Below are positions 1 to 26,936 of a DNA stretch of 56,051 bases, one piece after another. Source of the stretch: a virus (lineage: Duplodnaviria > Caudoviricetes). The DNA lies in the IMG/VR virus record IMGVR_UViG_3300025000_000126, positions 1-56,051 of that record, one strand, 5' to 3'. Within the stretch, counting starts at the first letter, position 1; every line of letters starts with the position of its first letter. The notes below the pieces were generated by a model that did no database searches, was not told where the DNA came from, and worked only from the letters and a program-made list of their open reading frames with translations. The translations under genes and the position numbers were made by a program.

Positions 1-127
1 CAATCATCTTATCAGTGTTGTGTGATTTGTTGCTTTCCACCATCTGCTGTTTCTGTAAAGCTGCAGTCTCTTTAGATACTTGATTCTCTCTTTCGAGTTG
101 CATCTCAATAGCTCTAAGTTGTAACTC
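1..127. repeat. Terminal direct repeat (copy 1), probable assembly overlap of a circular/permuted genome
   Basis: Bases 1-127 are identical to 55925-56051. The repeat lies inside the portal reading frame, and 127 is a common assembler k-mer. Confidence 0.95.
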
Positions 128-5438: not shown

Positions 5439-5589
5439 AGGAGACCCCAGTGATTTATTGTGTAACTTAATGAATTTGTAGTATATATACCCCTTGTAGT
5501 GTTCTTTTAGACCCTATATGGGCAGGATTGTTGAGATTTTGGCAAGGATCTTAAAGGAGTCTGAAGGGGAAGGATTTTAGGGGCTTGTA

Positions 5590-6125
5590 GCGACTGAGAG
5601 ACCATCCCCTGAGCGCAGCGAGGGGGCTTCGATCCCCTTCAAGGGTGCTGCCCCCTCTGTAAGGGAAACTCCCCACCCCTGGCAAAGTGCTCCAAAATCT
5701 ATAAGGGGCAAGGGATTCGGCCTCTCAGACTCCCCAAGATGCTGGTTAGCATCGCTGTCAACCTTCCATGGTGGCTAGCGTCTCGCAAGAGGTCCCCTAG
5801 CCGTGAAGGTGAGTATCCGAGCCTGTAACCTGATACCGCAACAGGGACGCAGAACGGCCTAAAGGCAACGGATAGCAGATAAACGAGTATCTTCTAGACT
5901 CCTTCAGGAAACCGGGAAACCGCTGTTGAATCCTGATCATAGTAAGAAAATGAAAGACAAGCTGTATCGCCATGAGAAATCAGAAAGATATACCACGTTG
6001 ACTGGCGTGACATGGGATACAGTAGATTTACTAGTAGCTTGCAAGGTTCTGGCTTGTGTTAGTAGAACCTTGTGACGTAGTAGTAAATCAGTAAGATCAA
6101 CCTTAAACCGGAGGTTTTACCTCCT
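5590..6125 (+). ncRNA. Candidate structured non-coding RNA or structured leader of the early transcript
   Basis: ORF-free, GC-richer stretch with many nested helices and GNRA-capped hairpins (see findings). No known family recognised. Confidence 0.4.
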
Positions 6126-6143
6126 ACAGGAGCCTAGAAAACC

Positions 6144-6821
6144 ATGAGTATCCCATTTGAAGGATTAGTTAGATTTCAGTTAACCAACGACAACGAGTAT
6201 TGGTCACAGCTTCAAGAAGCTACAAGGCTTCACCTTACAGCCCGTGATAGGTACGAGGACCTGTTAGCTTTTTGCAAAAAGAAAGGTGTCAAGTTCGTTG
6301 ATATTAAGAGACACCTTCTCAACGAAGCAAAGAAATGCGGATTGTATACCAGGAGCATGTGGAGCGATAAAGAAAAAGCTATGGTCTTCAGGACATGGAG
6401 TGATCTTCTCCAATGTAAGTATTCTTGGGTAATCAGCCTTAATAACTTTATAACCTATATTAAGAAATATAAGGATTATGATGTAAGGGCTGGTAGAGTA
6501 GCTAAAAAGAACCCTGTAGCCAGTAAGACTACAACGATTCGTAGAACCACTGATCAGGCTGGTAACAAGTCTGAAGTCAAAACAGAAACCATTGAGACAG
6601 TAGAGCCTGTAAAGAACCTTTCCCCTTCAGCACCTACTAGTATTCCAACAGGTTCTATTGTGGCTCCTGTCAGCCAGGATCTAACAGAGCTTCAACGTGT
6701 AACCTTGATCCTTCAGAACCTTGATCTCCTAGGTAAGGTCTGTCAAGAGAAGGGAGCCGTAAAGGAATTCAACACCTTAATGGCAGCTCTCGGATCGGTT
6801 GAGTTTATTATTGAAGCTTAA
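6144..6821 (+). CDS. Hypothetical protein, first gene of the early arm
   Basis: 225-aa ORF with an AGGAG RBS; no family recognised. Confidence 0.8.
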   Translation: MSIPFEGLVRFQLTNDNEYWSQLQEATRLHLTARDRYEDLLAFCKKKGVKFVDIKRHLLNEAKKCGLYTRSMWSDKEKAMVFRTWSDLLQCKYSWVISLNNFITYIKKYKDYDVRAGRVAKKNPVASKTTTIRRTTDQAGNKSEVKTETIETVEPVKNLSPSAPTSIPTGSIVAPVSQDLTELQRVTLILQNLDLLGKVCQEKGAVKEFNTLMAALGSVEFIIEA

Positions 6822-6831
6822 TACCGTCTTT

Positions 6832-6867
6832 TAGCCTTGTAGAGTTCTTGAAGGATTCTACAAGGCT
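6832..6867 (+). promoter_or_regulatory. Long hairpin (RNA processing or termination site candidate)
   Basis: AGCCTTGTAGA...TCTACAAGGCT inverted repeat just after the 6144 gene, without a clear U-tract. Confidence 0.45.
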
Positions 6868-6908
6868 TGAAGATGTTATTAACCCTTTCACTTAATGGAG
6901 ATAATCAA

Positions 6909-7064
6909 ATGAAAGTAATAAGAATCTCAAAAGATGCTAAGATTGTAAGACGGTTAGAAAGGTATGAGAAATCAATTAAAGCTGATCAGTATCTTTCAGC
7001 CTTGCAGCTTCCTTCAGTCTCTCTTCGAAGAGAGATGACCAGGAAGTCTAACTTAATCTTATAA
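6909..7064 (+). CDS. Small hypothetical protein
   Basis: ATG at 6909 with a GGAG RBS (MKVIRISKD...); same frame as track ORF 6867. Confidence 0.6.
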   Translation: MKVIRISKDAKIVRRLERYEKSIKADQYLSALQLPSVSLRREMTRKSNLIL

Positions 7065-7080
7065 CCTATAAGGTAATCCA

Positions 7081-7305
7081 GTGATAAAAGAACTCTGTTG
7101 TGGCTTTATATTTGCTTTAATAGCTACAAGTCTTATATTATCCTTTATCTTCTTTTTAGGAGTTACAATGGATAAAACATCCTGTAGCTCCTATGGGGAA
7201 GTTACAAACACTAAAACCCATTATGATATCTTCAGTGGCTGTTATATCAAGAAAGGATATGATTGGTATCTTTTAGACTCTTTTAGGGTGGAGGAACCAA
7301 AATGA
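7081..7305 (+). CDS. Small membrane protein
   Basis: N-terminal hydrophobic helix; stop overlaps the next ATG. Confidence 0.7.
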   Translation: MIKELCCGFIFALIATSLILSFIFFLGVTMDKTSCSSYGEVTNTKTHYDIFSGCYIKKGYDWYLLDSFRVEEPK

Positions 7306-7469
7306 ACTTTATAGAGATAGATGAAAACATTAAGGTTAATGTAAGATCTGTAGAGTCTTTAACCCTTATAGACAACATAGTAGTCATTCAGTTTACTGAT
7401 AAGTCTATAAGGAAAAGAGAGTTCTATGATGTACAAGAAGCTAGATATTACTTTAACTCTATTCAGTAA
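7302..7469 (+). CDS. Small hypothetical protein (55 aa, not in track)
   Basis: GGAGG RBS; MNFIEIDENIKVNVRSVES...; ATGA overlap with the upstream gene. Confidence 0.65.
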   Translation: MNFIEIDENIKVNVRSVESLTLIDNIVVIQFTDKSIRKREFYDVQEARYYFNSIQ

Positions 7470-7505
7470 CCTGAAGGAGTTACACAATTAAAAGGAGATA
7501 ATAAC

Positions 7506-7652
7506 ATGGAAAGTAAATGTAAGGTAATAGGAGCTGTAGCCTTTCCCCTTAAAGAATCCTTCAAGGTGGTTAAGAGTTATAAGAAATCATTAAAAACTAA
7601 ATTAGGTCCTTTACTCTTTAAGGCTTATGTTGCTAAGAGTATTCAAAAGTAA
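7506..7652 (+). CDS. Small basic hypothetical protein (48 aa)
   Basis: AAGGAG RBS; MESKCKVIGAV... Confidence 0.5.
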   Translation: MESKCKVIGAVAFPLKESFKVVKSYKKSLKTKLGPLLFKAYVAKSIQK

Positions 7653-7817
7653 TATAAAACGCTATCTTACAGCACCTACCATGATCATATAATTATACAG
7701 TTGTGTAACTTTCTTTTACTTCTGTATAAGCTATATAGATCTGGTAGGTCCTGTAAGCCACTTAGATTCTAATACATCTTATAGACTCTATAGGATATAT
7801 TAGCACCTAATTGGTTT

Positions 7818-7989
7818 CTATCAGGTGTATAAGGATTCTTTAAGGTACTTCACATTCTTATATCACCTGATAGGTGCTATTAGCCCTTATAGTATCCTTT
7901 CTTAATGGATGAAAAGGGTTATCCTTTATACATCTAATAGTAGCCTATCAGGTGTATAAGAGTTCTTTAAGGTACTTCACATTCTTATA
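7818..7989. repeat. 45-bp direct repeat pair (7818-7862, 7945-7989) within hairpins
   Basis: CTATCAGGTGTATAAG(GA/AG)TTCTTTAAGGTACTTCACATTCTTATA occurs twice, 43/45 identical, in an AT-rich intergenic region. Confidence 0.9.
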
Positions 7990-8112
7990 GAACTCTGATA
8001 GCATCTTATTAGAACCTATAGTCCTTATAGTACTATTAGACCCTAAAAGGATAAACTGTAGTTTATATACCATTCACTGTGCTTAACTCAAGGAGGTTTA
8101 GCTAAATAGCTT

Positions 8113-8337
8113 ATGCTAGATTTCTACGTAAGTGAGAACGCTGTAGGATGTGAACCTCCTTGGAATTGTGAAGAATCTGTATTAGCTTCAAGATACTTCT
8201 GGAGCAGAATGATTTATTGCTCTGAAGAGTCTACATTTGGTAATAAATACTCATTGTATCAAAGGTTAGGATTTGCTACGGGTGGATTAATACATGAAAG
8301 TAATCTAATTAAGTTATTAGTAAAAAGGAGACTGTAA
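8113..8337 (+). CDS. KVKRRL-family microprotein 1
   Basis: MLDFYV...FWSRMIY...SLYQRLG...KLLVKRRL; clearly paralogous to 16031, 16240 and 16467. Confidence 0.8.
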   Translation: MLDFYVSENAVGCEPPWNCEESVLASRYFWSRMIYCSEESTFGNKYSLYQRLGFATGGLIHESNLIKLLVKRRL

Positions 8338-8558
8338 TGAACAGTACTAAAAAAGAGGTTATATCAAAAGAGAAAGAAATAGAATATCCAGTCTTAATGA
8401 AATCAAAATACTCAGATTTTGTTATATTACTTGTAACTCCTAAAGTCGGAACTGTAGTATGGTCAAATGACTATTCATATGAAGTAGGGTATTGGTCATC
8501 CTCTTGGATTAAAGATTCCTTTGATTATTATGATGGAAAGATACTCTTAGAGAACTAA
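8337..8558 (+). CDS. Hypothetical protein
   Basis: Translationally coupled 73-aa ORF. Confidence 0.75.
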   Translation: MNSTKKEVISKEKEIEYPVLMKSKYSDFVILLVTPKVGTVVWSNDYSYEVGYWSSSWIKDSFDYYDGKILLEN

Positions 8559-8723
8559 ATGAAAACATTTATTAAAAATAACTGGCATTGGTTGTGGAGA
8601 ATACCTGTAAACTTTTTTACTATTTTATCTGGGAGAATTCCAATATGGCTATTAGTAGCTTGTATCTTTATTTTTATGATTGATTTAATTATTCTAGGAA
8701 TAAGACTTCAAGAGGAGTTTTAA
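8559..8723 (+). CDS. Small hydrophobic/membrane protein (54 aa, not in track)
   Basis: MKTFIKNNWHWLWRIP...WLLVACIFIFMIDLIILG; fills the gap between its neighbours. Confidence 0.6.
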   Translation: MKTFIKNNWHWLWRIPVNFFTILSGRIPIWLLVACIFIFMIDLIILGIRLQEEF

Positions 8724-8724
8724 T

Positions 8725-8916
8725 ATGTGCACCTGTAAGAGTGGTTCGATGTGTTCTCGAAAGCATACCATCCTAATCAATGGTATTCCTCAAGTAATCT
8801 TCAAGAGTAAGAAGGAGGCTATTGAGTTCTGTAAATCAGTCAAGAAAGATCCTAAGACTCCTGAAGAGTGGATCTTTGAAATCTCATGTAGCTGTGGAAC
8901 CATTAAGATTGAATAA
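8725..8916 (+). CDS. Small Cys-containing hypothetical protein
   Basis: GAGGAG RBS; CxC motifs at both ends. Confidence 0.65.
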   Translation: MCTCKSGSMCSRKHTILINGIPQVIFKSKKEAIEFCKSVKKDPKTPEEWIFEISCSCGTIKIE

Positions 8917-9206
8917 TGGCTATAGTAATCTTTAAGGATGTAGAAAGAATCATTCAGGAGGATGGAGACCAAATACGTCTATTTCCTAATGGTGGTTTTT
9001 TTGATTCTAGAGTTCAGGATATTTTAACTTCTGAAATGAAAAGGCTTCTAACCAATAATAGAAGAAGATTCTCTAAATATAAAAGAACTAGTGATAACTT
9101 TAATCCACCTAAGAAATTCTGTATTAATAATGAAGATTGGGACTGGTATGGTCTTTGGGTGAAGATGTACATACCAGATAACTTCAAGGTGAAGAGGATA
9201 CTATAA
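8916..9206 (+). CDS. Hypothetical protein ending in FKVKRIL (possible distant family member)
   Basis: Shares only the C-terminal motif with the microprotein family. Confidence 0.7.
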   Translation: MAIVIFKDVERIIQEDGDQIRLFPNGGFFDSRVQDILTSEMKRLLTNNRRRFSKYKRTSDNFNPPKKFCINNEDWDWYGLWVKMYIPDNFKVKRIL

Positions 9207-9658
9207 TGAGAAAAGGAGAACTGTTAGAAGAAGTATTAAGAGCCTCTGGTGCTACTTTCATCGAACGTGGCTCTGGATATAATGAATACAGATTAGGTTC
9301 TAATATTGTCTTCTGGAATGAATTTCCAGAACTCTTCATAGGATTTAGATTAAACGGTAAAGAGATAAATGAACTTGACCTTATAGATTTTATAAGATCT
9401 TATAAGGTCAATAGAAGGTTTGTAAAAGATAATAACGACACCCTTGTAGAGGTTCCTGAAGGACTACCACTCTGTAAGAACTGTAAGTTCTATAATTCAG
9501 TAGGCTTTACTACGTTTTGTAGTTCTGATACGTACAATACAGTAATTGATCCTGTCAATGGAACTAATCAGACCTTTAAGGCTAATTGTTTAGCTTGTAG
9601 GCTTGATATCAATATTAACGGTTGTGGTATCTTCGGGGATAGATATGAGAAAGGTTAA
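9206..9658 (+). CDS. Hypothetical protein with Cys-rich C-terminus
   Basis: 150-aa coupled ORF with CKNCKF...C...C motifs. Confidence 0.75.
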   Translation: MRKGELLEEVLRASGATFIERGSGYNEYRLGSNIVFWNEFPELFIGFRLNGKEINELDLIDFIRSYKVNRRFVKDNNDTLVEVPEGLPLCKNCKFYNSVGFTTFCSSDTYNTVIDPVNGTNQTFKANCLACRLDININGCGIFGDRYEKG

Positions 9659-9683
9659 ATATAGTGGAAGAAGAGTGGTTTGA

Positions 9684-9803
9684 ATGAAGTATTGGATAAA
9701 GCAGTTCTCGACTTTATCTATTTATAAGTCAAGAAGTATAGCGTTTAGTAGGCTTAATTTCTTTGAGCCATTTATCCAACTATCTATTAAAAGGAGATTG
9801 TAA
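9684..9803 (+). CDS. KVKRRL-family microprotein (39 aa, not in track)
   Basis: MKYWIKQFSTLSIYKSRSIAFSRLNFFEPFIQLSIKRRL; paralog of 11035. Confidence 0.7.
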   Translation: MKYWIKQFSTLSIYKSRSIAFSRLNFFEPFIQLSIKRRL

Positions 9804-9845
9804 TGACTATTAAGGGACAAGATAAACTAGAACGATAATATAGGG

Positions 9846-9930
9846 TCTACAATCCATTTTCATAAGAAAACAAGTTACCCTACAGGCTATCTACAGAAAA
9901 TCAAATGTAGGTGCCTTGTAGGGTCTAGAA
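9846..9930. repeat. Palindromic intergenic element, copy 1
   Basis: TCTACAATCCATTTT...AGTTACCCTACA...TAGGTGCCTTGTAG; homologous to 10907-10990. Confidence 0.75.
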
Positions 9931-9943
9931 GGGGGTATTTATA

Positions 9944-10723
9944 ATGAAACCTATAAGAATCTTACGGTATGGCCCTTCAGACAGCCTTAATAGACTTGTA
10001 GATTCTCTCAGAGAGTCTGAAGTTGATGTTAAGAAACTAAAGATGATCAACAGCTCTTACAGGGGATCTATTGATCATTTCATATTTAATTGGGGATCTT
10101 CAAGCTATAGAAATATAGCTAGTTGTAATATCTTCAATAGACCATCTGCTGTTGCTATTGCAGCTAACAAGCTGGATACATACTATACCTTGGAAAGAGC
10201 TGGACTTAATAATGTCCTTCCAGTGTGGTTTACTGATCCTGATTTAGCTAAGCATTACACTAAGAATGGATGTAAGGTATACTGTCGTACTACTCTTACT
10301 GGGTCTCAAGGGGAAGGGATTATAGTATCTACTGAACCTTCTGAAGTGGTTCATGCTTCTCTCTACACCCTTCAGGCCCCTGTATGTAGGGAAGTGAGAG
10401 TACATGTGTTTGCTGATGAAGTTATCTATTGTACAGAGAAACGTAAGATGAACTCTGAAAGGCTGGAAGAGGAATCTATTGAGTTCTCAAGGGATGTTCG
10501 TAACCTTGAGAATGGATGGGTATTCTGCCAAACAGAAGTACCTGAATCAGTGCAAAGTGTTGCAATTGATGTAGTAGAAAGGCTTGGTTTAGACTTCGGT
10601 GCTGTAGATATTGGTCTCTCTCACAGGAATGAACCTTTCATCTTTGAGGTTAATACAGCACCTGGATTGGAAGGAACTACACTGACTGCTTACAGGGATG
10701 CTATCATTGCACAACTATGTTAG
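9944..10723 (+). CDS. ATP-grasp ligase (RimK-like phage type)
   Basis: Motifs FNRPSAVAIAANKL, GSQGEGI, EVRVHVF and LGLDFGAVDI...FEVNTAPGL. Confidence 0.92.
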   Translation: MKPIRILRYGPSDSLNRLVDSLRESEVDVKKLKMINSSYRGSIDHFIFNWGSSSYRNIASCNIFNRPSAVAIAANKLDTYYTLERAGLNNVLPVWFTDPDLAKHYTKNGCKVYCRTTLTGSQGEGIIVSTEPSEVVHASLYTLQAPVCREVRVHVFADEVIYCTEKRKMNSERLEEESIEFSRDVRNLENGWVFCQTEVPESVQSVAIDVVERLGLDFGAVDIGLSHRNEPFIFEVNTAPGLEGTTLTAYRDAIIAQLC

Positions 10724-10902
10724 AGTTCCTTTTAGGTACAGAGATTAATTACGCCTGGAGAAGAGGAATCTTATGGTATTCTCCAACCACAAATATGTAT
10801 GGGTGTTATTCCTTTAATCACCCAAAGCGTTATGTAAGGGAAATGTTTAATGGTGACTACCCACGTGGGAGAACTCTATTAAAGGTGAAGAGGAGACTAT
10901 AA
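10717..10902 (+). CDS. KVKRRL-family microprotein
   Basis: MLEFLL...RRGILW...TLLKVKRRL. Confidence 0.75.
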   Translation: MLEFLLGTEINYAWRRGILWYSPTTNMYGCYSFNHPKRYVREMFNGDYPRGRTLLKVKRRL

Positions 10903-10906
10903 GGTA

Positions 10907-10990
10907 TCTACAATCCATTTTCCATTAAAGATGAGTTACCCTACACACCTATACCTAAAGATTAAACCTAGGGGCCTTCTAGCCCCTTCT
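10907..10990. repeat. Palindromic intergenic element, copy 2
   Basis: TCTACAATCCATTTT...AGTTACCCTACA...TAGGGGCCTTCTAG. Confidence 0.75.
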
Positions 10991-11034
10991 AAAGCGAAAT
11001 AAAGTGGAGCTTTTACTTCTAGGAGGTATTTCAT

Positions 11035-11160
11035 GTGACATATTGGATACAAGTATGGTCTAGTAGAGATTATCTAGGAGATTCAAGAAGTATTGTAGTC
11101 TCTTATAGAGGTATGTATTTTCCTCCTTTCATACAACTGAAGGTTAAAAGGAGACTGTAA
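11035..11160 (+). CDS. KVKRRL-family microprotein (41 aa, GTG start, not in track)
   Basis: AGGAGG RBS at 11021; MTYWIQVWSSRDYLGDSRSIVVSYRGMYFPPFIQLKVKRRL. Confidence 0.7.
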   Translation: MTYWIQVWSSRDYLGDSRSIVVSYRGMYFPPFIQLKVKRRL

Positions 11161-11161
11161 G

Positions 11162-11341
11162 GTGGTAGAGTTCTCCTTAACCTATAAGGATGATGATGGT
11201 TGGTTTCAATTTGTAAGGAGTATAAACTATACTAAAGAAGATATATTTTACTATTTCTATAAGGATGGAGGTCGTATAAGAAGTATACATGATTATAATT
11301 ATTATGATTTAGAAAAACCACTAACTAAAAGGAACCTAACT
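11162..11341 (+). CDS. KVKRRL-family unit lacking a stop codon, read in frame into the amidoligase
   Basis: MVEFSL...VRSINY...KPLTKRNL-T-MPTQ; an internal AAGGA RBS precedes ATG 11342. Confidence 0.6.
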
Positions 11342-12997
11342 ATGCCTACTCAAACTGAGTGTTTGTGTGTTAACTGTCATGAGAATATTACTGATCCTGA
11401 TTTCAGAGTGGTACTCTACCAGGAAGAGTATCCTGAGATTGAGATTGGTCCTTACTGTGAACAATGCCTTGCAAGAGTTAAGATCTGTAGTGGGTGTCAG
11501 AAACCTGCTATGATAGATACTGTAACTCATGTAGGTAGTGGGTTGCATTACTGTTCTGAGTGTGTAAAAAACCTTGAGATCTGTAGTCACTGTGGATCTC
11601 AGGTAAGTGGTGGTACTACTGTTATAAATGGAAAGAAGGTATGTAACTCCTGTAGGGAGTCTTACTATTTCTTGTGTAAGAGTTGTAATACCTATCACCA
11701 CCAGTATGGCTCAGTATCTCATAATTCCTTTGAGGGTCTTCAAAGAGCTGGTATGTTCAAGAAGTATGGGAATCTTGTATGTAAAGAGTGCTTTGAAAGA
11801 CGTAAGCCATTCTACAAGAAATATGAAGTATCTACCTGTAGTCACTGTGAAAGATACTTTACTATCACTGACCCCTCCCAGACAGAGTTCTGTCAGAGCT
11901 GTTATGATGGTTTTGATACTTGCAGTATCTGTGGTGATAAAAATCCACATGTTCATGCAGCAAGGGTTGAAGGTGAAGGACTTTTTATCTGCAAGAGTTG
12001 TATTAAGAAGTATAACAAATGCGATCACTGTAATCGCTTGACAAAAGATAAACTTCATGTTATAAAAGGTAGAACAAATACCTATACTGTATGCTCTGAG
12101 TGCCACTCTTTTTATCGTATCTGTAAGGTTTGTGGATCATTTACAAGTAATGAAAGTTGTGTCTGTAATACTTGTGATAATACCTACGTAAATAATATCT
12201 GTGAGGTTTGTGGGAGAATTAAGGACGGTTCAGGAAACTGTAGGGTCTGTCATGAATCCTTCATCTACAGGTACTCTGAGAAACCTCCATTGTTCTTCAA
12301 TGTATCAAAAAAGGATAAGACCAAGGATATCTTCTTTGGCTTCGAGAATGAAACTACCTATGGAGACTCTTACACTGATAAGAATATTGCCCTTAAAGAA
12401 ATCTATAAGGTGTATGATCCTACCATCCTCCTGTGTAAGAGTGATGGGTCTATCAGGGGTGAAGGGTTTGAGATAGTTACACAACCAATGACCTATCAGT
12501 TCTTTAATGATACTTCATGGGCTGGTCTCTTCCAGGATGGTATTAAGAAGAGTAAGTCATGTGGACTTCATGTTCATGTAGAACGTCATGCATTCTTATC
12601 TGATATACATCTCTATAAGGTGTGTAATTTTATCTATGAAAATAAACTGTTTATCAAATATATAGTAGGTCGTGATAGTAATGAATACTGTAAGGACTTT
12701 AGGTATAAAGTATCTACAGAGATTAAAAATGCTAAGATGAAGAGAACTGAAAGGCATCAAGCAGTTAACTTCAATAACAGTAATACTATTGAATTCCGCA
12801 TGTTTGCTGGATGTACTACAGAGAAGGAACTTAGATATAAGATTGAGTTTCTTCATGCTCTTGTAACCTACCAGAAGACTACACCTATCAGTACCTGCAA
12901 GGATCTTCTTCTCTTCAAGGAATATGTCAGAGAGAATGAGAAGACTTATTCTAACCTGTTTGTAAAGGTGAAGAGGTATGCCTTGCCGAGGATGTAA
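11342..12997 (+). CDS. Putative amidoligase (COOH-NH2 ligase type 2) with a long Cys-rich N-terminal region
   Basis: Catalytic motifs FFGFENE, KSDGSI..EGFEIVTQP, SCGLHVHV and TIEFRMF, with 18 CxxC motifs upstream. Confidence 0.85.
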   Translation: MPTQTECLCVNCHENITDPDFRVVLYQEEYPEIEIGPYCEQCLARVKICSGCQKPAMIDTVTHVGSGLHYCSECVKNLEICSHCGSQVSGGTTVINGKKVCNSCRESYYFLCKSCNTYHHQYGSVSHNSFEGLQRAGMFKKYGNLVCKECFERRKPFYKKYEVSTCSHCERYFTITDPSQTEFCQSCYDGFDTCSICGDKNPHVHAARVEGEGLFICKSCIKKYNKCDHCNRLTKDKLHVIKGRTNTYTVCSECHSFYRICKVCGSFTSNESCVCNTCDNTYVNNICEVCGRIKDGSGNCRVCHESFIYRYSEKPPLFFNVSKKDKTKDIFFGFENETTYGDSYTDKNIALKEIYKVYDPTILLCKSDGSIRGEGFEIVTQPMTYQFFNDTSWAGLFQDGIKKSKSCGLHVHVERHAFLSDIHLYKVCNFIYENKLFIKYIVGRDSNEYCKDFRYKVSTEIKNAKMKRTERHQAVNFNNSNTIEFRMFAGCTTEKELRYKIEFLHALVTYQKTTPISTCKDLLLFKEYVRENEKTYSNLFVKVKRYALPRM

Positions 12998-13172
12998 CCA
13001 ATCAGGAACTAGTATTTCTGATTATAATAGTGAAGTAGAGACCTATGGAATCATTTTGTATAATCACTTTAAAGAGATACGGAATGATATCTATTTATCC
13101 TGTCAGCAGTGTTATGAAGATGACCTCCCAAGTAAAACAACTCTTGGTCTATTAATCAAAAGGAGACTTTAA
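12978..13172 (+). CDS. KVKRRL-family microprotein with two CxxC motifs
   Basis: MPCRGC...YGIILY...CQQC...LGLLIKRRL. Confidence 0.7.
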   Translation: MPCRGCNQSGTSISDYNSEVETYGIILYNHFKEIRNDIYLSCQQCYEDDLPSKTTLGLLIKRRL

Positions 13173-13175
13173 TAT

Positions 13176-14060
13176 ATGTGCATAGCTATTTATAAGCCTG
13201 TAGGAAAAGAACTCTCTGAGGCTGTACTTAAAACCTGCTTCAATAATAATAATGATGGAGCAGGGTTCGCTTATATTTCAACGGATTATCACGGTGTTAA
13301 GAGGGTAAAGTTAAAGAAGTTTATGAAGTTTGATCAGTTCTATACAGCCTATAAGAGGGCTACTGATACAGCCCCTGACAGCCCCTTCATTATTCACTTT
13401 AGAATTGGTACACATGGTGAGAAGACAGTATACAACTGTCATCCTTTCTATGTGGATAAGAACCTTGTATTCATCCATAATGGTATCATCTCAGGTGTTG
13501 GTACCGACGTTAAGAAGTCAGATACACAACTCTTTAATGATAAGATCTTGAAGAAGCTACCAAAAGGATGGGAATCTAATGAAGCTATCCAAGAGTTGAT
13601 AGCTGATTATATTGGTTACTCTAAGCTCATCTTCCTAAATGTATTAGGTGAAGTGTATATTGTAAATGAGAAGAAAGGTAACTGGAATGATGGTATTTGG
13701 TTTAGTAATGAGTCCTACAAGGAGAGGACATATACACCACATACTACTTATAGCTCTGGAAGATATCCAGTAACTACATACAGAAATAAATGGTGGGAAG
13801 TTTCCTTCCACACGGTAGAGACCTGTGATTTCTGTAATGGTGCTAAACCTCTCAGGTCTCTCACAGTCTATAAGGATATAGATAATCCTCTTGATGTTAT
13901 CTTCATATGCAATCAGTGTCATAAAGAAGTAACTGATAATTGTATTCTTAGTGCTAATGAAATGATTCCTTTGTATAAGTACATAGAGGAAGAGAATAAG
14001 CGTCTTGCAATTGTGCATGACAAAAGTATCTTTACAGATGAACAAACCTATATGATGTAA
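13176..14060 (+). CDS. Class II (Ntn) glutamine amidotransferase
   Basis: N-terminal MC nucleophile, NNDGAG, IHFRIGTHG, NCHPF, HNGII and SDT motifs, plus a C-terminal CxxC pair. Confidence 0.92.
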   Translation: MCIAIYKPVGKELSEAVLKTCFNNNNDGAGFAYISTDYHGVKRVKLKKFMKFDQFYTAYKRATDTAPDSPFIIHFRIGTHGEKTVYNCHPFYVDKNLVFIHNGIISGVGTDVKKSDTQLFNDKILKKLPKGWESNEAIQELIADYIGYSKLIFLNVLGEVYIVNEKKGNWNDGIWFSNESYKERTYTPHTTYSSGRYPVTTYRNKWWEVSFHTVETCDFCNGAKPLRSLTVYKDIDNPLDVIFICNQCHKEVTDNCILSANEMIPLYKYIEEENKRLAIVHDKSIFTDEQTYMM

Positions 14061-14065
14061 CCTCT

Positions 14066-14248
14066 ATGAGAATCTTTGCTATTAGAGTTCCTCATAGTTG
14101 CCTAGAAGAGATATATGAAAACTATAGAAGTATATACATAAGTAGACCAAATAATAATTCTAACTATGTATGGCATGGTAGCTTTAGGTCCTGTTGTCAG
14201 ACAAGAAAAACAAAAAGACTATTAGTTAGAAGGTTATATAATGAATAG
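14066..14248 (+). CDS. KVKRRL-family microprotein
   Basis: MRIFAIRV...YRSIY...HGSF...RLLVRRL; paralog of 14241. Confidence 0.72.
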   Translation: MRIFAIRVPHSCLEEIYENYRSIYISRPNNNSNYVWHGSFRSCCQTRKTKRLLVRRLYNE

Positions 14249-14417
14249 AGAATTCTATATTCGAGTAAGAGGTTCAGACGAATATTACCCTGGAAGAGTG
14301 CGGAGTATATACTGTACAGGGAGAGACGGTCTTAATAGAAATAGTGTAGAGAATATATATCATGGTTCTTTTTGTTCTATTAGTGGTAAACTTATCAAGA
14401 AACTAAAGGTGAAATGA
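14241..14417 (+). CDS. KVKRRL-family microprotein (58 aa, not in track)
   Basis: MNREFYIRV...VRSIY...YHGSF...IKKLKVK; stop overlaps the primase ATG. Confidence 0.75.
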   Translation: MNREFYIRVRGSDEYYPGRVRSIYCTGRDGLNRNSVENIYHGSFCSISGKLIKKLKVK

Positions 14418-16030
14418 ATAATAGAGAGTGTCCTAAGTGCAGGGATGTTGGTAGAGATAAGACAGGTGATCACTTATGGCTCATGCGTGACGGAAAGACA
14501 TGGTGCTGTCTGAAACCCTACCATCCTCCCTACTACGAAAGAGATAACGAGGAATGTGAGGCTCCTGAAGAAATGCAAATACAACTAGAAGATGTAAAAA
14601 CTTTACCATGCTACGGAAACATAGATCGAAAGATCAGTAAGGAAACTCATCAGCACTTTAAGGTAAGGACAGAACTTAACGAGACCAACAGAACCCCCTC
14701 AGTTATATACTATCCAGAGACTTCAAGGGGAAAATTCATTGGTTATAAGCAGAGAATATTACCTAAGAGATTTGTTTCCTTACTAAAACCTGAGAGCAAG
14801 GGTTTAGTTCCTGATTTCTTTGGTCAACCTGTATGTCCTCAGACAGGGAAGAGACTTCTCATATGTGCAGGGGAGGAAGATACACTAGCTGCCTATGAGA
14901 TGTTAAAGAGTAAATACCCAGAAGTTGAACCATGTGTTGTAGGATTACCAAGGGGTGAGAGTGGTACTACTACAATCTCTGAGAACCTAGAGTTCCTGAA
15001 AGGGTTTGAAGAGGTTATAATAGGTACTGATATGGATGAAGCTGGCAGGAAAGCAGTCTCCTGCATAGCTCCTATTATTGGAGAGAGGGCTAGAGTTCTT
15101 GTCCTGTCAGAGAAAGATATCTCTGACATGAGGGTTAAGGGGAAAGATAAAGAGTTCATCAATGCTTTCTTCAATGCTAGAGAATATCGTCCAGTTAATG
15201 TGGTATCTGTATCTGATATCCTTGATAGAGCTATTACCCCTAGGCCTTGGGGTTTATCTTATCCCTTTCAGAAACTTACTCAGATGTCTTACGGGTTGAA
15301 GGAAGGTGGTGAGACCATCTCTATTGGTGCTGGTCCAGGGTGTGGAAAGACCACTCTAATGTATCAGATACAGCAACACTTAATGTTTGAACATAAAGAA
15401 CGTATAGCTATCTTCAACCTTGAAGAGAAGGCTGAAGGTGCCTTGAATCATCTCATAGGTACTATGATGAATAAGCCTATTCATAGACCTGATTGTGTAT
15501 ATGATCTTGAGGAAGCTAGAAGGGCTGGTGAATTGCTTGAGGGTAAAGCAGAGTTCTATGATGGTTTCTCTGAGGATTGGAATGAAGTTGAATCTCAAGT
15601 GAGATACTTTGCTAGTAAGGGTATAAGGTTTTACTTTATTGATCCTGTATCTGCATTGGTAGAACACCTCTCCCCTTCAGATGCTAACACAGAGCTTGGT
15701 AGAATCTACAGATCTATTAGAAAGTTTAGGATGGAGCAGGGTCTTACATTCTTTATTGTCAACCACCTTAATAATCCTCAAAGTGGTAAGGATCATGGTG
15801 CTGGAGGGGATGTATATGGGTCACAGTTCTCTGGTAGTAGAGCACAATGGAAGTACTCAACAGCACTGTGGGGTCTGGTAAGGGATCAATTAGCTGATGA
15901 TCCAGATGAGCGTAACAAGGTTAAGCTGTCAGTAATTAAAGACAGATTAGGTGGTAATACTGGGTATGTATACTTGAAGTATAACACAGCAACTGGTAAG
16001 CTGGAGGAAGAGTTCAATGAGGAATTTTAA
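14414..16030 (+). CDS. DNA primase-helicase (T7 gp4-like)
   Basis: N-terminal Zn-binding CPKC, TOPRIM motifs AGEED, DMDEAG and KDISD, and a DnaB-type helicase with GPGCGKT, FIDP and KDR. Confidence 0.95.
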   Translation: MNNRECPKCRDVGRDKTGDHLWLMRDGKTWCCLKPYHPPYYERDNEECEAPEEMQIQLEDVKTLPCYGNIDRKISKETHQHFKVRTELNETNRTPSVIYYPETSRGKFIGYKQRILPKRFVSLLKPESKGLVPDFFGQPVCPQTGKRLLICAGEEDTLAAYEMLKSKYPEVEPCVVGLPRGESGTTTISENLEFLKGFEEVIIGTDMDEAGRKAVSCIAPIIGERARVLVLSEKDISDMRVKGKDKEFINAFFNAREYRPVNVVSVSDILDRAITPRPWGLSYPFQKLTQMSYGLKEGGETISIGAGPGCGKTTLMYQIQQHLMFEHKERIAIFNLEEKAEGALNHLIGTMMNKPIHRPDCVYDLEEARRAGELLEGKAEFYDGFSEDWNEVESQVRYFASKGIRFYFIDPVSALVEHLSPSDANTELGRIYRSIRKFRMEQGLTFFIVNHLNNPQSGKDHGAGGDVYGSQFSGSRAQWKYSTALWGLVRDQLADDPDERNKVKLSVIKDRLGGNTGYVYLKYNTATGKLEEEFNEEF

Positions 16031-16243
16031 ATGAACTTCTATGTGTGTAGAGATTATAAAGGCTGTGTACCTAATAGGTTAGATGGAAGACCTTTCTCTA
16101 AAGCCTTCTGGTCAGGTCTTATATACACTGATAGGGGTGTTATTGATAATTATGTATCTATACTTCAGAAGCTAGGACTTTGTAGAGGGGGTATAGTGAG
16201 AGGTCACCAAATTAAACCATTAATAATTAAAAGAGTTCTATGA
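16031..16243 (+). CDS. KVKRRL-family microprotein
   Basis: MNFYVC...FWSGLIY...SILQKLG...GHQIKPLIIKRVL. Confidence 0.8.
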   Translation: MNFYVCRDYKGCVPNRLDGRPFSKAFWSGLIYTDRGVIDNYVSILQKLGLCRGGIVRGHQIKPLIIKRVL

Positions 16244-16470
16244 ACTTCTATGTGTGTATAAACTCTTATGAGTGTGTAGATCCAGAGATATATGATGATG
16301 GACTTGATGCAGATACTACAGACCCTGATAGGTTCTGGTTTGAAAGACTTATCTATACAGAAACAGTAGATGAAATGTACCTCTCTATAGCTCAAAAGTT
16401 AGATAAGGTATGGGGAGGATTTGTATATGGTCATCAAGTGAGACCTCTATTAGTTAAGAGAAGGCTATGA
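16240..16470 (+). CDS. KVKRRL-family microprotein
   Basis: MNFYVC...FWFERLIY...SIAQKLD...GHQVRPLLVKRRL. Confidence 0.8.
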   Translation: MNFYVCINSYECVDPEIYDDGLDADTTDPDRFWFERLIYTETVDEMYLSIAQKLDKVWGGFVYGHQVRPLLVKRRL

Positions 16471-16676
16471 GATTCTTTATATGTATAAGTGGGAAAGGAT
16501 GTTGCAGTAGCCATAATAGTGGTCACCATTTCTTCAACAGATTAATCTACATAGAAACTCCAGATGGTGTTGACTATATATCTTTACTTCAACGTATAGA
16601 TTACCATGCAGTAAGAGGTAGTGGATATGTAAGTGACTCTCAGGTGAAAGAACTAAAGGTTAAACGTGAAATCTAA
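16467..16676 (+). CDS. KVKRRL-family microprotein
   Basis: MRFFIC...FFNRLIY...SLLQRID...SQVKELKVKREI. Confidence 0.8.
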   Translation: MRFFICISGKGCCSSHNSGHHFFNRLIYIETPDGVDYISLLQRIDYHAVRGSGYVSDSQVKELKVKREI

Positions 16677-17373
16677 AATCATCTTTGACATAGAAGGTAA
16701 CAATCTACTATATGGTATCTCTAAAATATGGTGTATCTGCACCTATAATATAACCACTAGAGAAAGTCTACAGTTCTATGAAGATACCCTAGTAGATGGT
16801 CTTAAGTTGCTGCAAGATTCTGACTTGATCATTGGTCATAACATAACAGGGTTCGATCTGCCTGCTATAAAGAAACTATATCCTTGGTGGACATACAAAG
16901 ATATAAGAGATACTTATGTGATGTCTAAGTTGTTTAATCCTGATAGAGCACAAGGTCATTCATTAGAATCTTATGGTGAGCAATTCAGTAGGGCAAAACC
17001 AAAGCATGAGGACTGGACTCAGTTCTCTCCAGAGATGTTATATAGGTGCTCTGAAGATGTAGAAATCAATAAGTTGACATATGAATTTCTAGTACAAAGA
17101 TACTGCCAGGATTGGTCGTGGATAGAAGCTCTCAAATTAGAGCAGCAGTTCGCTATCTACCAGGCTTACCAAGAACTGGCAGGGGTTGATTTTGATGTAC
17201 AAAAAGCTAAGGATCTTCTAGTCCTTATAGACTCTGAAGTTGACAAGTTAGATAAAGAGTTGTATAATAGGATACCTAAGAGGGTAAAACAAGTAGGAGC
17301 TACAGTGACTAAACCATTTAAGAAGAATGGAGAGTATACAGTACAGGTGGAGAGGTGGATACATGGAGATTGA
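16666..17373 (+). CDS. DNA polymerase family A, N-terminal part (3'-5' exonuclease plus start of thumb)
   Basis: ExoI FDIE, ExoII GHNITGFD, HSLESYG and ExoIII YRCSEDV motifs, then GVDFD and KPFKKNG. Confidence 0.9.
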   Translation: MKSKIIFDIEGNNLLYGISKIWCICTYNITTRESLQFYEDTLVDGLKLLQDSDLIIGHNITGFDLPAIKKLYPWWTYKDIRDTYVMSKLFNPDRAQGHSLESYGEQFSRAKPKHEDWTQFSPEMLYRCSEDVEINKLTYEFLVQRYCQDWSWIEALKLEQQFAIYQAYQELAGVDFDVQKAKDLLVLIDSEVDKLDKELYNRIPKRVKQVGATVTKPFKKNGEYTVQVERWIHGD

Positions 17374-17539
17374 GTTCTGGTTAGGGTATGATTTTAAGAA
17401 TATATGTAATAAAAAGCTAATAAGATCTATAGGAACAAGTAGGTATTCTGACGGGGTAGTTTTTATTTATTACAGTAGCATAGACATGGTTTGTCACAGG
17501 TGTAAGCAACTAAAGGTGAAGAGATGCTATTCTATTTGA
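17363..17539 (+). CDS. KVKRRL-family microprotein between the polymerase halves
   Basis: ATG 17363 with a GAGG RBS; MEIEFWL...IRSIG...KQLKVKRCYSI. Confidence 0.72.
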   Translation: MEIEFWLGYDFKNICNKKLIRSIGTSRYSDGVVFIYYSSIDMVCHRCKQLKVKRCYSI

Positions 17540-17694
17540 GGAAGAATCCTACAGCTAGTAATCATTTTCGATGTAGAACTATTTATAAAGGTAAGGGGGG
17601 TTTATGGTTAAAAGGTGGTGATGGAAACTTATGGGATCTTATGTCTCCACCCTTTAAGATTATGTATCAACTTAAAATCAAGAGGGTTCTGTAA
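17524..17694 (+). CDS. KVKRRL-family microprotein between the polymerase halves (56 aa, not in track)
   Basis: MLFYLRKN...CRTIY...MYQLKIKRVL. Confidence 0.75.
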   Translation: MLFYLRKNPTASNHFRCRTIYKGKGGLWLKGGDGNLWDLMSPPFKIMYQLKIKRVL

Positions 17695-17695
17695 G

Positions 17696-17881
17696 ATGAT
17701 AGAATTTTATATACAGAAAGTATACTTTGATAGTATTAGAACTAATGAACACACTACAAGGGGTATATTTCATACTCACTTTGGTGATCATAAAACTTTA
17801 GGTAGCCTAGGTAAATACTATTGGAACTTAAACGCTCAACCTTATAATGTTATGTATAAGTTAAAGGTTAAACCAATGTGA
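17696..17881 (+). CDS. KVKRRL-family microprotein between the polymerase halves
   Basis: ATG 17696; MIEFYIQ...TRGIF...MYKLKVKPM; same frame as track ORF 17615. Confidence 0.75.
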   Translation: MIEFYIQKVYFDSIRTNEHTTRGIFHTHFGDHKTLGSLGKYYWNLNAQPYNVMYKLKVKPM

Positions 17882-19315
17882 ACATACAAGGCCCTTTCAC
17901 CCGTATAGAATACCGAGAAATCAACTTAGACTCCTCCCAGCAGGTTAAGGATTATCTGCTTAGTGTTGGGTGGATACCTACACAGTATAATATTAATAAG
18001 GAGACTAGAGAACCTACAAGCCCTAAACTGACAGAAGATTCCTTCAGTAGTATTAAGGATGATACAGGAATCTTACTCGCTAAGAGGGCTATCTTAGTAC
18101 ATAGACGTAGACAGATAGAGAATTACAAAGACCCAGAGAATAAGGGTCTGTTAGCTTACGTAAGGGATGATGGTAGGATACCTGCTGCTGGTATTACATG
18201 TGCTACTCCAACCGGAAGAACAACTCACAGAATTTGTGTGAACATTCCGAAGGCAGACCCTAAGATCCTACTAGGGAAAGAGATGAGGGAGTTGTTCATC
18301 TGCCTCCCCCCTTACAAGATGGTTGGGTGTGATTTAGCTGCTATAGAGAATAGATTACTTGGACACTTCGTATCACAGTTTGATGGTGGTGCCTACTGGA
18401 ATCATATGAACTCTGTAGAGGACCCGCACCAGTATAATGCAGATCTGTTAGGGTGTTCAAGAAACACTGCGAAGACATGGATCTATGCGTTAAAACACAA
18501 GCGCATATAAAACTCATTGAACTCAGGAAACATCTAAGATCTTATTGACTGTAGGAGTTGTGACCTTTGGTACAGATTATGACGATCCTGATCGAAGCTT
18601 TAATTCTTATTGGTTGTGCTTTAAGAGTTGAAGAACGAGCAACGACTATCCCGTAAGGGAGTACACTCAAGCGAGTGGAAGCGGTGAGATCCAAAAAGCA
18701 TGAATAAACATGCTCGAAAGAATCTACGGTGGTAGATTTAAGTAGTGGACTAATGTCCTATGGATATGATATAGTCTGATCTATATGGAAACATATAGCT
18801 GTCTTTGGACGGGTAGTAATTAGCGACTACTACTGAACACTAATGTTATGTTTGGAGCCTCTGCCAGGAAGCTTGCCAGTATCCTTGGTTGTTCTCTAGA
18901 AGAATCAGAAGAGAAGATGGCAGTATTCTGGGCAGCAAACCCTGGCCTTAAAGGTCTAATAGATTCCTTAGAGAAATACTACAGAAAGAACAAGTGTCTT
19001 GTAGGTCTTGATGGTAGGAGGTTGTCTGTAAGGGGAAGACATAAGTTACTCAACACTCTTATCCAATCCTCTGCTGCTATTATCTTTAAAAGATGGAACC
19101 TTATAGCTAATGCAAGGATCTTGCAGGTTGGTCTAGATGCAACACAGATTATTGCTATGCACGATGAGTATCAATATAGGGTATTAGATGTAGACGTTGA
19201 AGATACTTGCAAAGTATTAGTAGAATCTGCAAGAGATGCTGGGTCTTATTATTCATTAAGAGTTCCTATCGAAGCTGAGTGCAAATACGGAGAAAACTGG
19301 TACGAAACACACTAA
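17878..19315 (+). CDS. DNA polymerase family A, polymerase part; exons 17878-18490 and 18846-19315 (about 360 aa spliced)
   Basis: TPTGR, motif A GCDLAAIENR, motif B RNTAKTWIYA|FMFGA restored by splicing, NTLIQSSAA, and motif C MHDE. Confidence 0.92.
18491..18845 (+). mobile_element. Group I intron without an ORF (355 nt) in polymerase motif B
   Basis: P1 TATGCGT/GCGCATA places a U-G pair at the 5' splice site. Core elements include R (GCAACGACTA) and S (GATATAGTCT), which form P7. The terminal G is at 18845, and splicing restores the frame. Confidence 0.92.
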
Positions 19316-19356
19316 TATTAAAGGAGAGTTTATTCTCTTTGGTTCTACTTTAAGGA

Positions 19357-19560
19357 GTGGAAATGAATCTTAAAAGATATAACCTATTTATAGGTGACGA
19401 GTATATAGATTTTGAAGTAAATAAAGAAGAAAGTTCTGAAGGAGAGTGGGTATATTACCCAGACCTTTCAGAACTCTTCACCAGAATTGAATGGCTTGAG
19501 AAAGAACTTACTAACACTAACGCAAAGATCATTAAGGCGAGGGAATGTCTGACAAAATAA
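19357..19560 (+). CDS. Hypothetical protein
   Basis: AAGGAG RBS; GEWVYY..L motif with a coiled C-terminus. The start may be the downstream ATG. Confidence 0.7.
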   Translation: MEMNLKRYNLFIGDEYIDFEVNKEESSEGEWVYYPDLSELFTRIEWLEKELTNTNAKIIKARECLTK

Positions 19561-26739: not shown

Positions 26740-26936
26740 AAATGGGGCAGAAGAAGGAAGAGTTCCTAAAGAAGCTTGAAGAGTTCTGTGAGGCTGAAGG
26801 GTTCTACTTCCAATGTTCTAATGTAGACTACCCTCTTATTATATTTCATAAGAAGTTTAAAGTAGAAGGAGAACATTATAGTTTCTATGATCTCTCTAAA
26901 AGTGATGAGTTCGATTTAATAATAAGGAAACCATGA
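26730..26936 (+). CDS. Hypothetical protein
   Basis: Overlaps the RNR start (ATGA). Confidence 0.65.
   Translation: MGIKMGQKKEEFLKKLEEFCEAEGFYFQCSNVDYPLIIFHKKFKVEGEHYSFYDLSKSDEFDLIIRKP

Follow-up and report, generated by a model that had tools for sequence, protein, structure and literature searches.

Microgenes of the Early and Replication Region

The DNA analysed here, IMG/VR record IMGVR_UViG_3300025000_000126, represents a complete virus and has direct terminal repeats; its full 56,051 bp are referred to as the window. Early and replication genes occupy the plus strand from approximately 6 to 30.5 kb, and the structural genes lie on the minus strand elsewhere. Threaded between the early and replication genes are microgenes, open reading frames (ORFs) of 39–76 amino acids (aa), most of which end in a basic peptide resembling K-V-K-R-R-L (the tail). 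The analysis points to one protein family with twelve members in the window, probably a real multigene family, limited to one clade, whose very small early proteins are encoded by coupled plug-in units.

An earlier note on this DNA had named 14 such ORFs and a possible fifteenth, 8916 (labels give the first nucleotide of the ORF in the window). All were present on the plus strand, with the coordinates and peptides that it gave. Of its family of about 14–15 members, 12 proved solid, 12978 and 8916 shared the tail only, and the N-terminus of 11162 was doubtful. Relatives were fetched through the primase-helicase and included L002 and L004 (95–98% helicase identity), L003 (83%), and L006, L011, L015 and L016 (64–67%); the contigs derive from groundwater-type metagenomes. 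The twelve ORFs that appear to constitute the family are as follows. E-values are from a profile hidden Markov model (HMM) trained on relatives only, z-scores from comparison with shuffled sequences, and ratios of non-synonymous to synonymous substitution rates (dN/dS) from comparison with L002/L004.

8113–8337, plus strand: microgene, 74 aa, subfamily A; z 4.8–16 to the other A members without the tail; E 0.029
9684–9803, plus strand: microgene, 39 aa, subfamily B; z 7.7 to 11035; E 0.002
10717–10902, plus strand: microgene, 61 aa; orthologues in L002 and L003; E 1.3e-4; dN/dS 0.34
11035–11160, plus strand: microgene, 41 aa, subfamily B, GTG start; top window match of the HMM, E 4e-8
14066–14248, plus strand: microgene, 60 aa, subfamily C; z 4.3 to 14241; leave-one-out z 4.9; E 0.31
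14241–14417, plus strand: microgene, 58 aa, subfamily C; E 2.4e-4; dN/dS 0.78
16031–16243, plus strand: microgene, 70 aa, subfamily A, first of a tandem trio; dN/dS 0.49
16240–16470, plus strand: microgene, 76 aa, subfamily A, ATGA overlap on both sides; dN/dS 0.73
16467–16676, plus strand: microgene, 69 aa, subfamily A; E 1e-5; dN/dS 0.33
17363–17539, plus strand: microgene, 58 aa, first of the exonuclease-polymerase trio; orthologue L003_6846; E 2.3e-5
17524–17694, plus strand: microgene, 56 aa, subfamily D; leave-one-out z 5.0; relatives in other slots of L003 and L006
17696–17881, plus strand: microgene, 61 aa, subfamily D; orthologue L003_7688; tail LKVKPM overlapping the GTG of the PolA polymerase gene

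The coordinates fit the translational coupling described earlier: 12 of the 14 downstream junctions overlapped the next start or lay within 3 nt of it. The start of 10717 overlaps the stop of the ATP-grasp gene by 7 nt, and the tail of 16467 (LKVKREI) shares 11 nt with the PolA exonuclease gene at its GTG start. The tail of 14241 is shortened to LKVK by an ATGA overlap with the primase-helicase start, and that of 14066 reads LLVRRLYNE. Orthologues of 14241 were present in L002, L004 and L003, and the L003 copy keeps a full LVIKRVL tail.

Genes 9684 and 10717 were uncoupled at the 3' side and were followed instead by a 132–140-nt intergenic element (~140 nt after 9684 and 132 nt after 10717). 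The two copies of this element share repeats at 9846–9884 and 10907–10945 (39 nt, 79% identity), extending to approximately 11034, and both end in a similar GGTATTT-ATA/CAT-start context. The second copy, after 10717, is conserved in L002 and L003. The repeated element may be a transcription signal.

Two further features lie near the first microgene. A 10-nt perfect inverted repeat (8089–8098/8153–8162) allows the Shine-Dalgarno (SD) sequence of 8113 (CAAGGAGGTT) to pair 54 nt downstream inside the ORF, an arrangement that may sequester the ribosome site. Just upstream, within AT-rich sequence, two 59-nt direct repeats (7804–7862 and 7931–7989) are 86% identical and 127 nt apart.

One Family or a Shared Tail

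The four subfamilies described earlier stood when the tail was removed and Smith-Waterman scores were compared with shuffles: A (8113/16031/16240/16467), z 4.8–18.6; B (9684/11035), z 7.7; C (14066/14241), z 4.3; and D (17524/17696), z 2.9. By the same method, pairs from different subfamilies were not significantly similar without the tail. The earlier note had held that the family would dissolve if no similarity across subfamilies remained without the last seven residues; a signal did remain in 15 of 31 sequence clusters, in contrast to the non-significant pairwise comparisons.

Those clusters came from 69 sequences grouped by blastp (E < 1e-3) with the tail removed. Each cluster in turn was left out, an HMM was built from the remaining clusters without tails, and every test sequence was scored against 100 shuffles of itself. 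Fifteen clusters reached p <= 0.05 and 13 reached p <= 0.01, where approximately 1.5 and 0.3 were expected. A smaller version, limited to the window, L002, L003 and P sequences, was weak and is superseded by the 69-sequence version. Profile alignment (hhalign) of subfamily A against all others gave P 0.0044 over N-terminal or R-x-I-Y columns, compared with 0.08–0.10 for reversed controls. An N-terminal anchor pattern, M-x(0-3)-[FY]-[YFW]-[ILVM] at the protein start, occurred in none of 200 non-family ATG-ORFs (at least 30 aa, six frames), whereas 8 of 10 subfamilies had it in one member or more.

The HMM trained on relatives used 51 sequences from L003, L006, L011 and L015 only, with the tail included, and was run against the 644 window ORFs of at least 20 aa in six frames. 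The 12 microgenes took ranks 1–12. Eight had E-values below 0.005, three lay at 0.025–0.04 and 14066 was at 0.31; the first non-member was at 0.63. The independence of this test is partial, because training had included the L003 orthologues of five window genes. Taken together, the window appears to hold one family of twelve genes and, beside it, unrelated proteins that share the tail. The sequences concerned outside the family are:

8916–9206, plus strand: 96-aa protein ending FKVKRIL, tail only, non-member; no match to the outside-trained HMM at E <= 10
11162–11341, plus strand: doubtful microgene-like N-terminal extension, sharing the amidoligase frame and not separated from it by a stop
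12962–12976, plus strand: V-K-V-K-R codons at the amidoligase C-terminus, directly upstream of the 12978 ATG; SD-like AAGGTGAAGAGG
12978–13172, plus strand: 64-aa CxxC...CxxC (Cys4) protein, tail only, non-member

The 12978 protein has no N-terminal motif, gave P 0.41 against the family by hhalign and E 1.4 with the outside-trained HMM, and was among the clusters failing the leave-one-out test. Its orthologues were found in L002, L003 and L006, and in a comparison of relatives' contigs from four sequencing runs (three studies) its body was of the same length but diverged in three of the four.

Similarly, 11162 had been counted as a separate microgene and turned out to be the first ~60 residues of the amidoligase ORF (611 aa). 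This extension had a leave-one-out p of 0.05 and an outside-trained HMM E-value of 4.8. The ATG at 11342, 60 codons inside the annotated ORF, is kept as the amidoligase start in L002 and L003, and in the alignment with these relatives the 60 codons upstream of it are variable or partly deleted. The conserved start is thus probably the ATG at 11342.

The Tail as Peptide and Ribosome Site

A loose regular expression for the tail was applied to every stop-to-stop frame of at least 20 codons on both strands. It gave 17 matches, 13 of which were plus-strand ORFs within 8110–17881; the remaining four (27291+, 38037-, 44795- and 9590-) were weak look-alikes. At the DNA level the tail reads CTN-AAR-GTN/ATH-AAR-AGR-AGR-CTN, followed by a TAA/TGA that overlaps the next ATG. 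The K-R-R codons form a purine run (AAGGAG- or AAGAGG-like) 5–10 nt upstream of the next start, and a terminal CTA supplies the A of the ATGA overlap. AGG made up 47–67% of arginine codons in the tails versus 35–41% in large genes, and CTA 37–49% of leucine codons versus 12–27%.

Part of the tail follows its surroundings rather than the family. The same tail is found on the unrelated proteins 12978 and 8916 and at the amidoligase C-terminus, the amidoligase orthologues of L003 and L011 end otherwise than V-K-V-K-R, and an SD-like AAGGTCAGAGGG underlies the FFKVRGIV terminus of one structural gene. In sister phages (helicase identity 58–69%), small genes of similar appearance terminate in L-K-E-K, L-K-R-K-E or L-K-R-R-L; the charged end therefore tracks the lineage and not the protein family. 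The next start codon dictates the final microgene residue, which therefore varies (L, I, K, M, E, V or P).

Other observations fit a constraint on the peptide. Approximately 65 other genes of the window genome have ribosome sites without the tail, and the full tail is retained in 9684 and 10717 despite the lack of a coupled gene downstream. In the 10717 orthologues the SD-like run weakens but the basic residues persist (KVKKVL, IIKKSL). ATT/ATC codons serve at the V/I position as readily as GTN. In the last seven codons of orthologue pairs, synonymous differences per site (pS) were 0.25 (middle, 0.31) and non-synonymous differences (pN) 0.067 (middle, 0.196).

In our reading, the hydrophobic-x-hydrophobic-K segment is the last beta strand of the predicted protein, and dual coding on behalf of the next cistron accounts for most of the R-R-L end. 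The refuting possibility named earlier, that the tail is only a by-product of an overlapping ribosome site, thus applies to much of K-R-R-L and does not extend to the hydrophobic-x-hydrophobic-K part, which behaves as protein. Likewise, of the three anchors first described, the N-terminal motif (M-x-F/Y-Y/W-hydrophobic, a predicted strand starting from the initiator Met), the central (S/T)-R-x-I-Y and hydrophobic-x-hydrophobic-K were retained, always in this order; the K-R-R-L ending appears to be largely dual coding.

Evolutionary Rate and Turnover in Relatives

Compared with L002/L004, the microgenes had dN/dS values of 0.33–0.78, versus 0.04–0.19 for their neighbours. Relative to L003, microgene proteins were 30–51% identical, compared with 83% for the helicase. 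The rate comparison of anchors and loops that had been called for showed the ends to be more constrained than the middle, with pN/pS of 0.26 in the first six codons and 0.27 in the last seven, against 0.64 between them. The family had been described as expanded and diversifying: the expansion, the conserved ends and the fast middles were all seen, and positive selection was not shown because every dN/dS was below 1.

Copy number and position, checked in the relatives as had been advised, both varied. Gene 14066 is an exact extra of ~180 bp, absent in L002, L003 and the contigs of all four runs. The block 8086–8748 (663 bp), which holds 8113 and two other small genes, was missing in all four runs as well. 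L002 and three of the four runs lack 256 bp between a point within 11035 and one within the 11162 extension, a gap that leaves a chimeric leader. L006 carries 17 microgene copies in 8 kb, most of them placed around the helicase, exonuclease and polymerase.

The closest L006/L011 relatives of 11035, 17363 and 17524/17696 occupied other slots (z 5.2–7.4; each the best of 35 comparisons). For 11035 this relative was L006_6111, in the slot before the polymerase (z 7.4). In tandem runs the 24-nt ends were 75–92% identical, and the opening 39 nt of 16240 were 79% identical to the start of 16031.

Distribution of the Family

The closest cultured phages are LUZ24-like/UFV-P2-like Pseudomonas podophages, at a helicase identity of just 34%, and a megablast of 8000–18000 against 50,697 phage records gave no match. 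All of the relatives named above hold the same kind of ORF in the same module, and the ORFs remain open at 64–98% helicase identity. The family is thus not confined to this genome, as the 17 copies in L006 also show. A family profile found 13 proteins among 1.84 billion representatives, all in this clade, and in a word-index search 9 of 46 candidates matched, also within it.

A family HMM was run against 3730 six-frame ORFs of 71 loci and gave 60 matches, all on the plus strand and in five loci (helicase 64–83%). Three of these loci duplicate training contigs; L015 (nine matches) and L016 (ten) were new to that HMM. There were no matches in the other 66 loci, including UFV-P2 (L013). A family-alignment search of the relatives' whole records, in which few candidates passed the prefilter, found 11 places in the window genome and two in one relative, and it is thus a poor guide to copies beyond the replication module. 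The family was found only in loci with a helicase at least 64% identical, and it appears to be clade-restricted.

The earlier impression that this is not a described family agreed with the profile searches. In Pfam, 32 members gave no significant match; seven families were each hit by one member only (best E 0.018). Ten window members searched against PHROGs gave a best E of 0.27, and the sequence profile had no matches among PDB chains at E <= 1. No description of the family was present in the literature searched, which did not cover subscription journals. The 13 library sequences, set against dozens more copies from six-frame scanning of relatives, are a warning for annotation; the further copies may be absent from protein libraries since short ORFs go uncalled.

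Predicted Fold

AlphaFold2 modelling of 16031 with a 32-row family alignment gave a predicted local distance difference test score (pLDDT) of 86 and a predicted template modelling score (pTM) of 0.71, with six short strands and two short helices. A model of 17696, from an 18-row alignment excluding subfamily A, was all-beta with five strands (pLDDT 66.8). Both models place strands at the N-terminal motif, at R-x-I-Y and at the tail.

The top Foldseek matches of both models were SH3 domains and also lentiviral integrase C-terminal domains, all non-significant (best E in the PDB 0.95 for 16031 and 1.5 for 17696; best E in BFVD 0.74). The SH3 fold is a five-stranded, partly open barrel, and the matches to it had template modelling scores (TM) of 0.35–0.57. 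The microproteins may fold as a tiny SH3-like beta domain with variable loops. Like SH3-like small beta-barrels, they are 40–76 aa long and mostly beta by prediction; unlike them, subfamily A has two extra short predicted helices, and there is no sequence relation to PDB chains.

The ESM Atlas held no model of this protein and gave no usable match. A homodimer prediction for 16031 scored 0.02 against a mark of 0.42 and counts neither way. A CsrA-like or Sm-like reading, based on the N-terminal strands of those proteins, was dropped for want of such a Pfam match.

Favoured Explanation

The explanation that we consider probable is that of a real, clade-restricted family whose members act as coupled plug-in units. 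The ribosome site of the upstream gene would serve the microgene, and the microgene tail would serve the next gene. Because each unit would take and pass on a ribosome site, copies could duplicate, insert or vanish where two genes meet, including essential replication genes, and polar effects would be avoided. The product would be an early accessory protein that the phage can do without, built as a tiny beta domain whose end strands are conserved and whose loops change fast.

Several observations weigh against this explanation. The anchor motifs were defined post hoc, after the data had been seen. Without the tail, 16 of the 31 clusters missed p <= 0.05, including most of subfamily A, 10717 and 9684, and the hhalign match of subfamily A to the rest spans just 5–12 columns; the similarity across subfamilies appears to rest on short motifs. 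The counts at the anchors are small, with 7.7 synonymous against 6.3 non-synonymous differences in the tail. ORFs under weak constraint, or evolving near-neutrally, would likewise be dispensable and have a high dN/dS. None of the indels of 180, 256 and 663 bp ended at a tail-to-tail junction, so they do not establish how copies would duplicate. The fold matches were non-significant (E >= 0.74, TM 0.3–0.57), and the 17696 model is of moderate confidence only.

As to function, the small size, early position, dispensability and evolutionary rate suggest dispensable binders of host or defence proteins in early infection. This is the least certain step and is offered tentatively. A stronger form, in which each genome would hold a binder library of 12–20 small inhibitors against host defence or takeover targets, built on one beta scaffold with loops re-diversified by duplication and divergence, seems unlikely. 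There, the dual-coded tail would make new copies expression-neutral, and the array could grow inside an essential replication operon.

Small orphan early genes abound in phages, and their origin and turnover are poorly understood. This clade is an unusually clean case, with one recognisable microprotein scaffold multiplied 12–20 times per genome and lodged among essential replication genes. Should the plug-in model be true, it would give a simple rule for adding small genes to a tightly coupled operon at no cost. If the products are binders, they would form a natural library of inhibitors of very small size (40–76 aa) and a source of a new minimal protein scaffold.

Alternative Explanations

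The earlier suggestion of a mobile mini-cassette, active or semi-active, which would spread by recombination at its conserved ends with the protein secondary, fared best among the alternatives and is nonetheless decidedly improbable. The precise presence or absence of 14066 and of block 8086–8748 among close relatives, the homologues in different slots of different phages, and the similar ends and start in the tandem runs are all as it would predict. Selfish elements are abundant in the genome and its relatives (a group I intron, intein-like inserts and the HNH-type ORFs in the L011 helicase), and shuffling mediated by promoter-stem-loop (PeSL) cassettes in T4-type phages (PMC2839356) is a precedent.

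However, the units of 39–76 aa contain no nuclease or recombinase and had no Pfam nuclease match, unlike a homing-endonuclease gene. No inverted repeats bracket 14061–14240, 8086–8748 or the 16031–16676 trio, as would be expected of a transposon-like mini-element such as the mycobacteriophage MPME-type element. The indel boundaries lie off the tail-to-tail junctions, and promoter-like sites were not above chance. Furthermore, the conserved ends change more synonymously than non-synonymously, which argues for a peptide constraint rather than a DNA site. What survives of the suggestion is the presence/absence pattern and the shifts in position; mobility machinery and bracketing repeats were not found.

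A second alternative, very unlikely in our estimate, is that the ORFs are translated spacers that keep ribosomes on the polycistronic mRNA, the peptide being functionless. The close junctions, the high dN/dS (0.33–0.78) and the dispensability of copies fit this, but the conserved N-terminal and central motifs lie far from the junctions, the first six codons are constrained (pN/pS 0.26), and the fold prediction for 16031 is confident. Core genes directly juxtaposed would couple equally well, as in relatives lacking a copy.

We give equally little credence to the view that there is no real family, only unrelated ORFs made alike by the SD sequence and start of the next gene in their last codons. 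It draws on the tail of the non-homologous 12978, 8916 and amidoligase C-terminus, the FFKVRGIV ending of a structural gene, the shift of the charged part with lineage, the enrichment of AGG and CTA, and the non-significant cross-subfamily pairs. Against it, a signal persists with the tail removed, in both the N-terminal motif and the leave-one-out test, the outside-trained HMM ranks the twelve first, and the other ~65 ribosome sites lack the tail. The tails of 9684 and 10717 have no coupled gene to serve, the 10717 orthologues keep their basic residues as the SD weakens, and the V/I position is not limited to GTN. The leave-one-out test and the outside-trained HMM largely refute this view.

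The least probable suggestion, that the neighbouring ATP-grasp, Amidoligase_2 and class-II glutamine amidotransferase (GATase) enzymes form a phage peptide-tagging or -modification system in which the microproteins serve as substrates, carriers or specificity subunits, has in its favour seven tail-bearing ORFs (9684–14241) interleaved with the three enzymes, a microgene-like segment fused in frame to the amidoligase, and the peptide ligation reportedly described by Iyer and colleagues in 2009 for enzymes of the ATP-grasp/amidoligase fold class, but is disfavoured because UFV-P2 has the same triad and synteny with unrelated small ORFs and no family HMM matches, the 17 L006 copies mostly flank the helicase, exonuclease and polymerase, and no terminal acceptor or donor residue is conserved. 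Nor do the proteins resemble a Pup- or ubiquitin-like modifier, having no invariant C-terminal GG or Gln/Glu. PMC10580990 cites Iyer et al. 2009.

Comparison with Known Systems

Like the window, LUZ24-like/UFV-P2-like podophages have a module of amidoligase, GATase and ATP-grasp genes followed by a T7-type primase-helicase and a split family A polymerase, with many small ORFs between those genes. In UFV-P2, unlike the window, the 14 translated small ORFs are heterogeneous, have no common termini and do not match the family HMM; in the window, paralogues of a single family occupy the slots.

The hyperplastic regions of T4-type phages, reportedly treated by Comeau and colleagues in 2014 (PMC4122927), are a second point of comparison. 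Such PeSL/hyperplastic regions share with the window small non-essential genes, short conserved boundaries, and presence and position that differ between close relatives; in the PeSL, too, the boundary sequence has an expression function. PeSLs are non-coding promoter and terminator units, between which recombination has been shown experimentally (Arbiol et al. 2010, PMC2839356). The window boundary, by contrast, is coding (a C-terminal strand and an SD), acts in translation and bounds homologous genes. Boundary recombination is documented for the PeSL, and the window indels are not bounded by a repeated element. A promoter scan gave 40 sigma-70-like sites versus 46 +/- 6 in shuffles, and none of 12 terminator-like sites was at a unit boundary.

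Morons are independent promoter-gene-terminator insertions with their own transcription signals and are usually mutually unrelated. They resemble the microgenes as extra genes at junctions of conserved genes that leave the neighbours undisturbed. The microgene units differ in bringing a ribosome site only, without enrichment of sigma-70-like sites. The family is set apart from the LUZ24-like small ORFs, PeSLs and morons by being paralogues of one protein with a coding boundary acting in translation.

Neighbouring Genes and Other Observations

The larger genes among which the microgenes lie are as follows.

9944–10723, plus strand: ATP-grasp enzyme
11162–12997, plus strand: Amidoligase_2 protein (annotated ORF, 611 aa)
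13176–14060, plus strand: GATase
14414–16030, plus strand: T7-type primase-helicase
16666–17373, plus strand: family A DNA polymerase, exonuclease piece (PolA exonuclease), GTG start
17878–18510 and 18848–19315, plus strand: family A DNA polymerase, polymerase pieces, GTG start at 17878

Between the amidoligase and the amidotransferase, a zinc-ribbon-like CxxC...CxxC family of ~55–72 aa, to which 12978 belongs, is kept across the wider clade. Its copies are:

Window, 12978–13172
L003, 2913–3116
L006, 164–331
L010, 460–877

The primase-helicase C-terminus (16004–16030) is acidic and ends in a terminal Phe (EEEFNEEF), a feature reminiscent of the polymerase-binding C-terminal tail of T7 gp4. A perfect TTGACA-17-TATAAT at 17240–17268 on the plus strand, inside the exonuclease gene and ~95 nt upstream of the 17363 trio, was the sole 12/12 promoter match in 5400–19500.

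A group I intron (18437–18798, plus strand; Rfam RF00028, 75.7 bits, E 1.7e-17) lies between the polymerase ORFs 17878–18510 and 18848–19315, and the equivalent gap in L003 holds a 299-aa ORF (8502–9401). This intron was the sole Rfam match at the gathering threshold; the gap 17373–17878 was not recognised as an intron at that threshold, the permissive mode not having been run there. A tRNA scan found none.

Inserts were also seen in other large genes. In the portal-like protein at 2–3247 (minus strand), residues ~523–860 form an insert with matches to terminase, primase and helicase-loader PHROGs, as is typical of inteins. The 909-aa ribonucleotide reductase (26933–29662, plus strand) carries an HNH-endonuclease-like insert at residues ~306–407. 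The L011 helicase is in two pieces, split by HNH-type ORFs, and extra ORFs of 177–215 aa lie in or around it (5373–6020, 7086–7619 and 10419–10979). In L003, a 103-aa ORF among the microgenes (7019–7330) is cytidine/dCMP-deaminase-like, its motif judged by eye.

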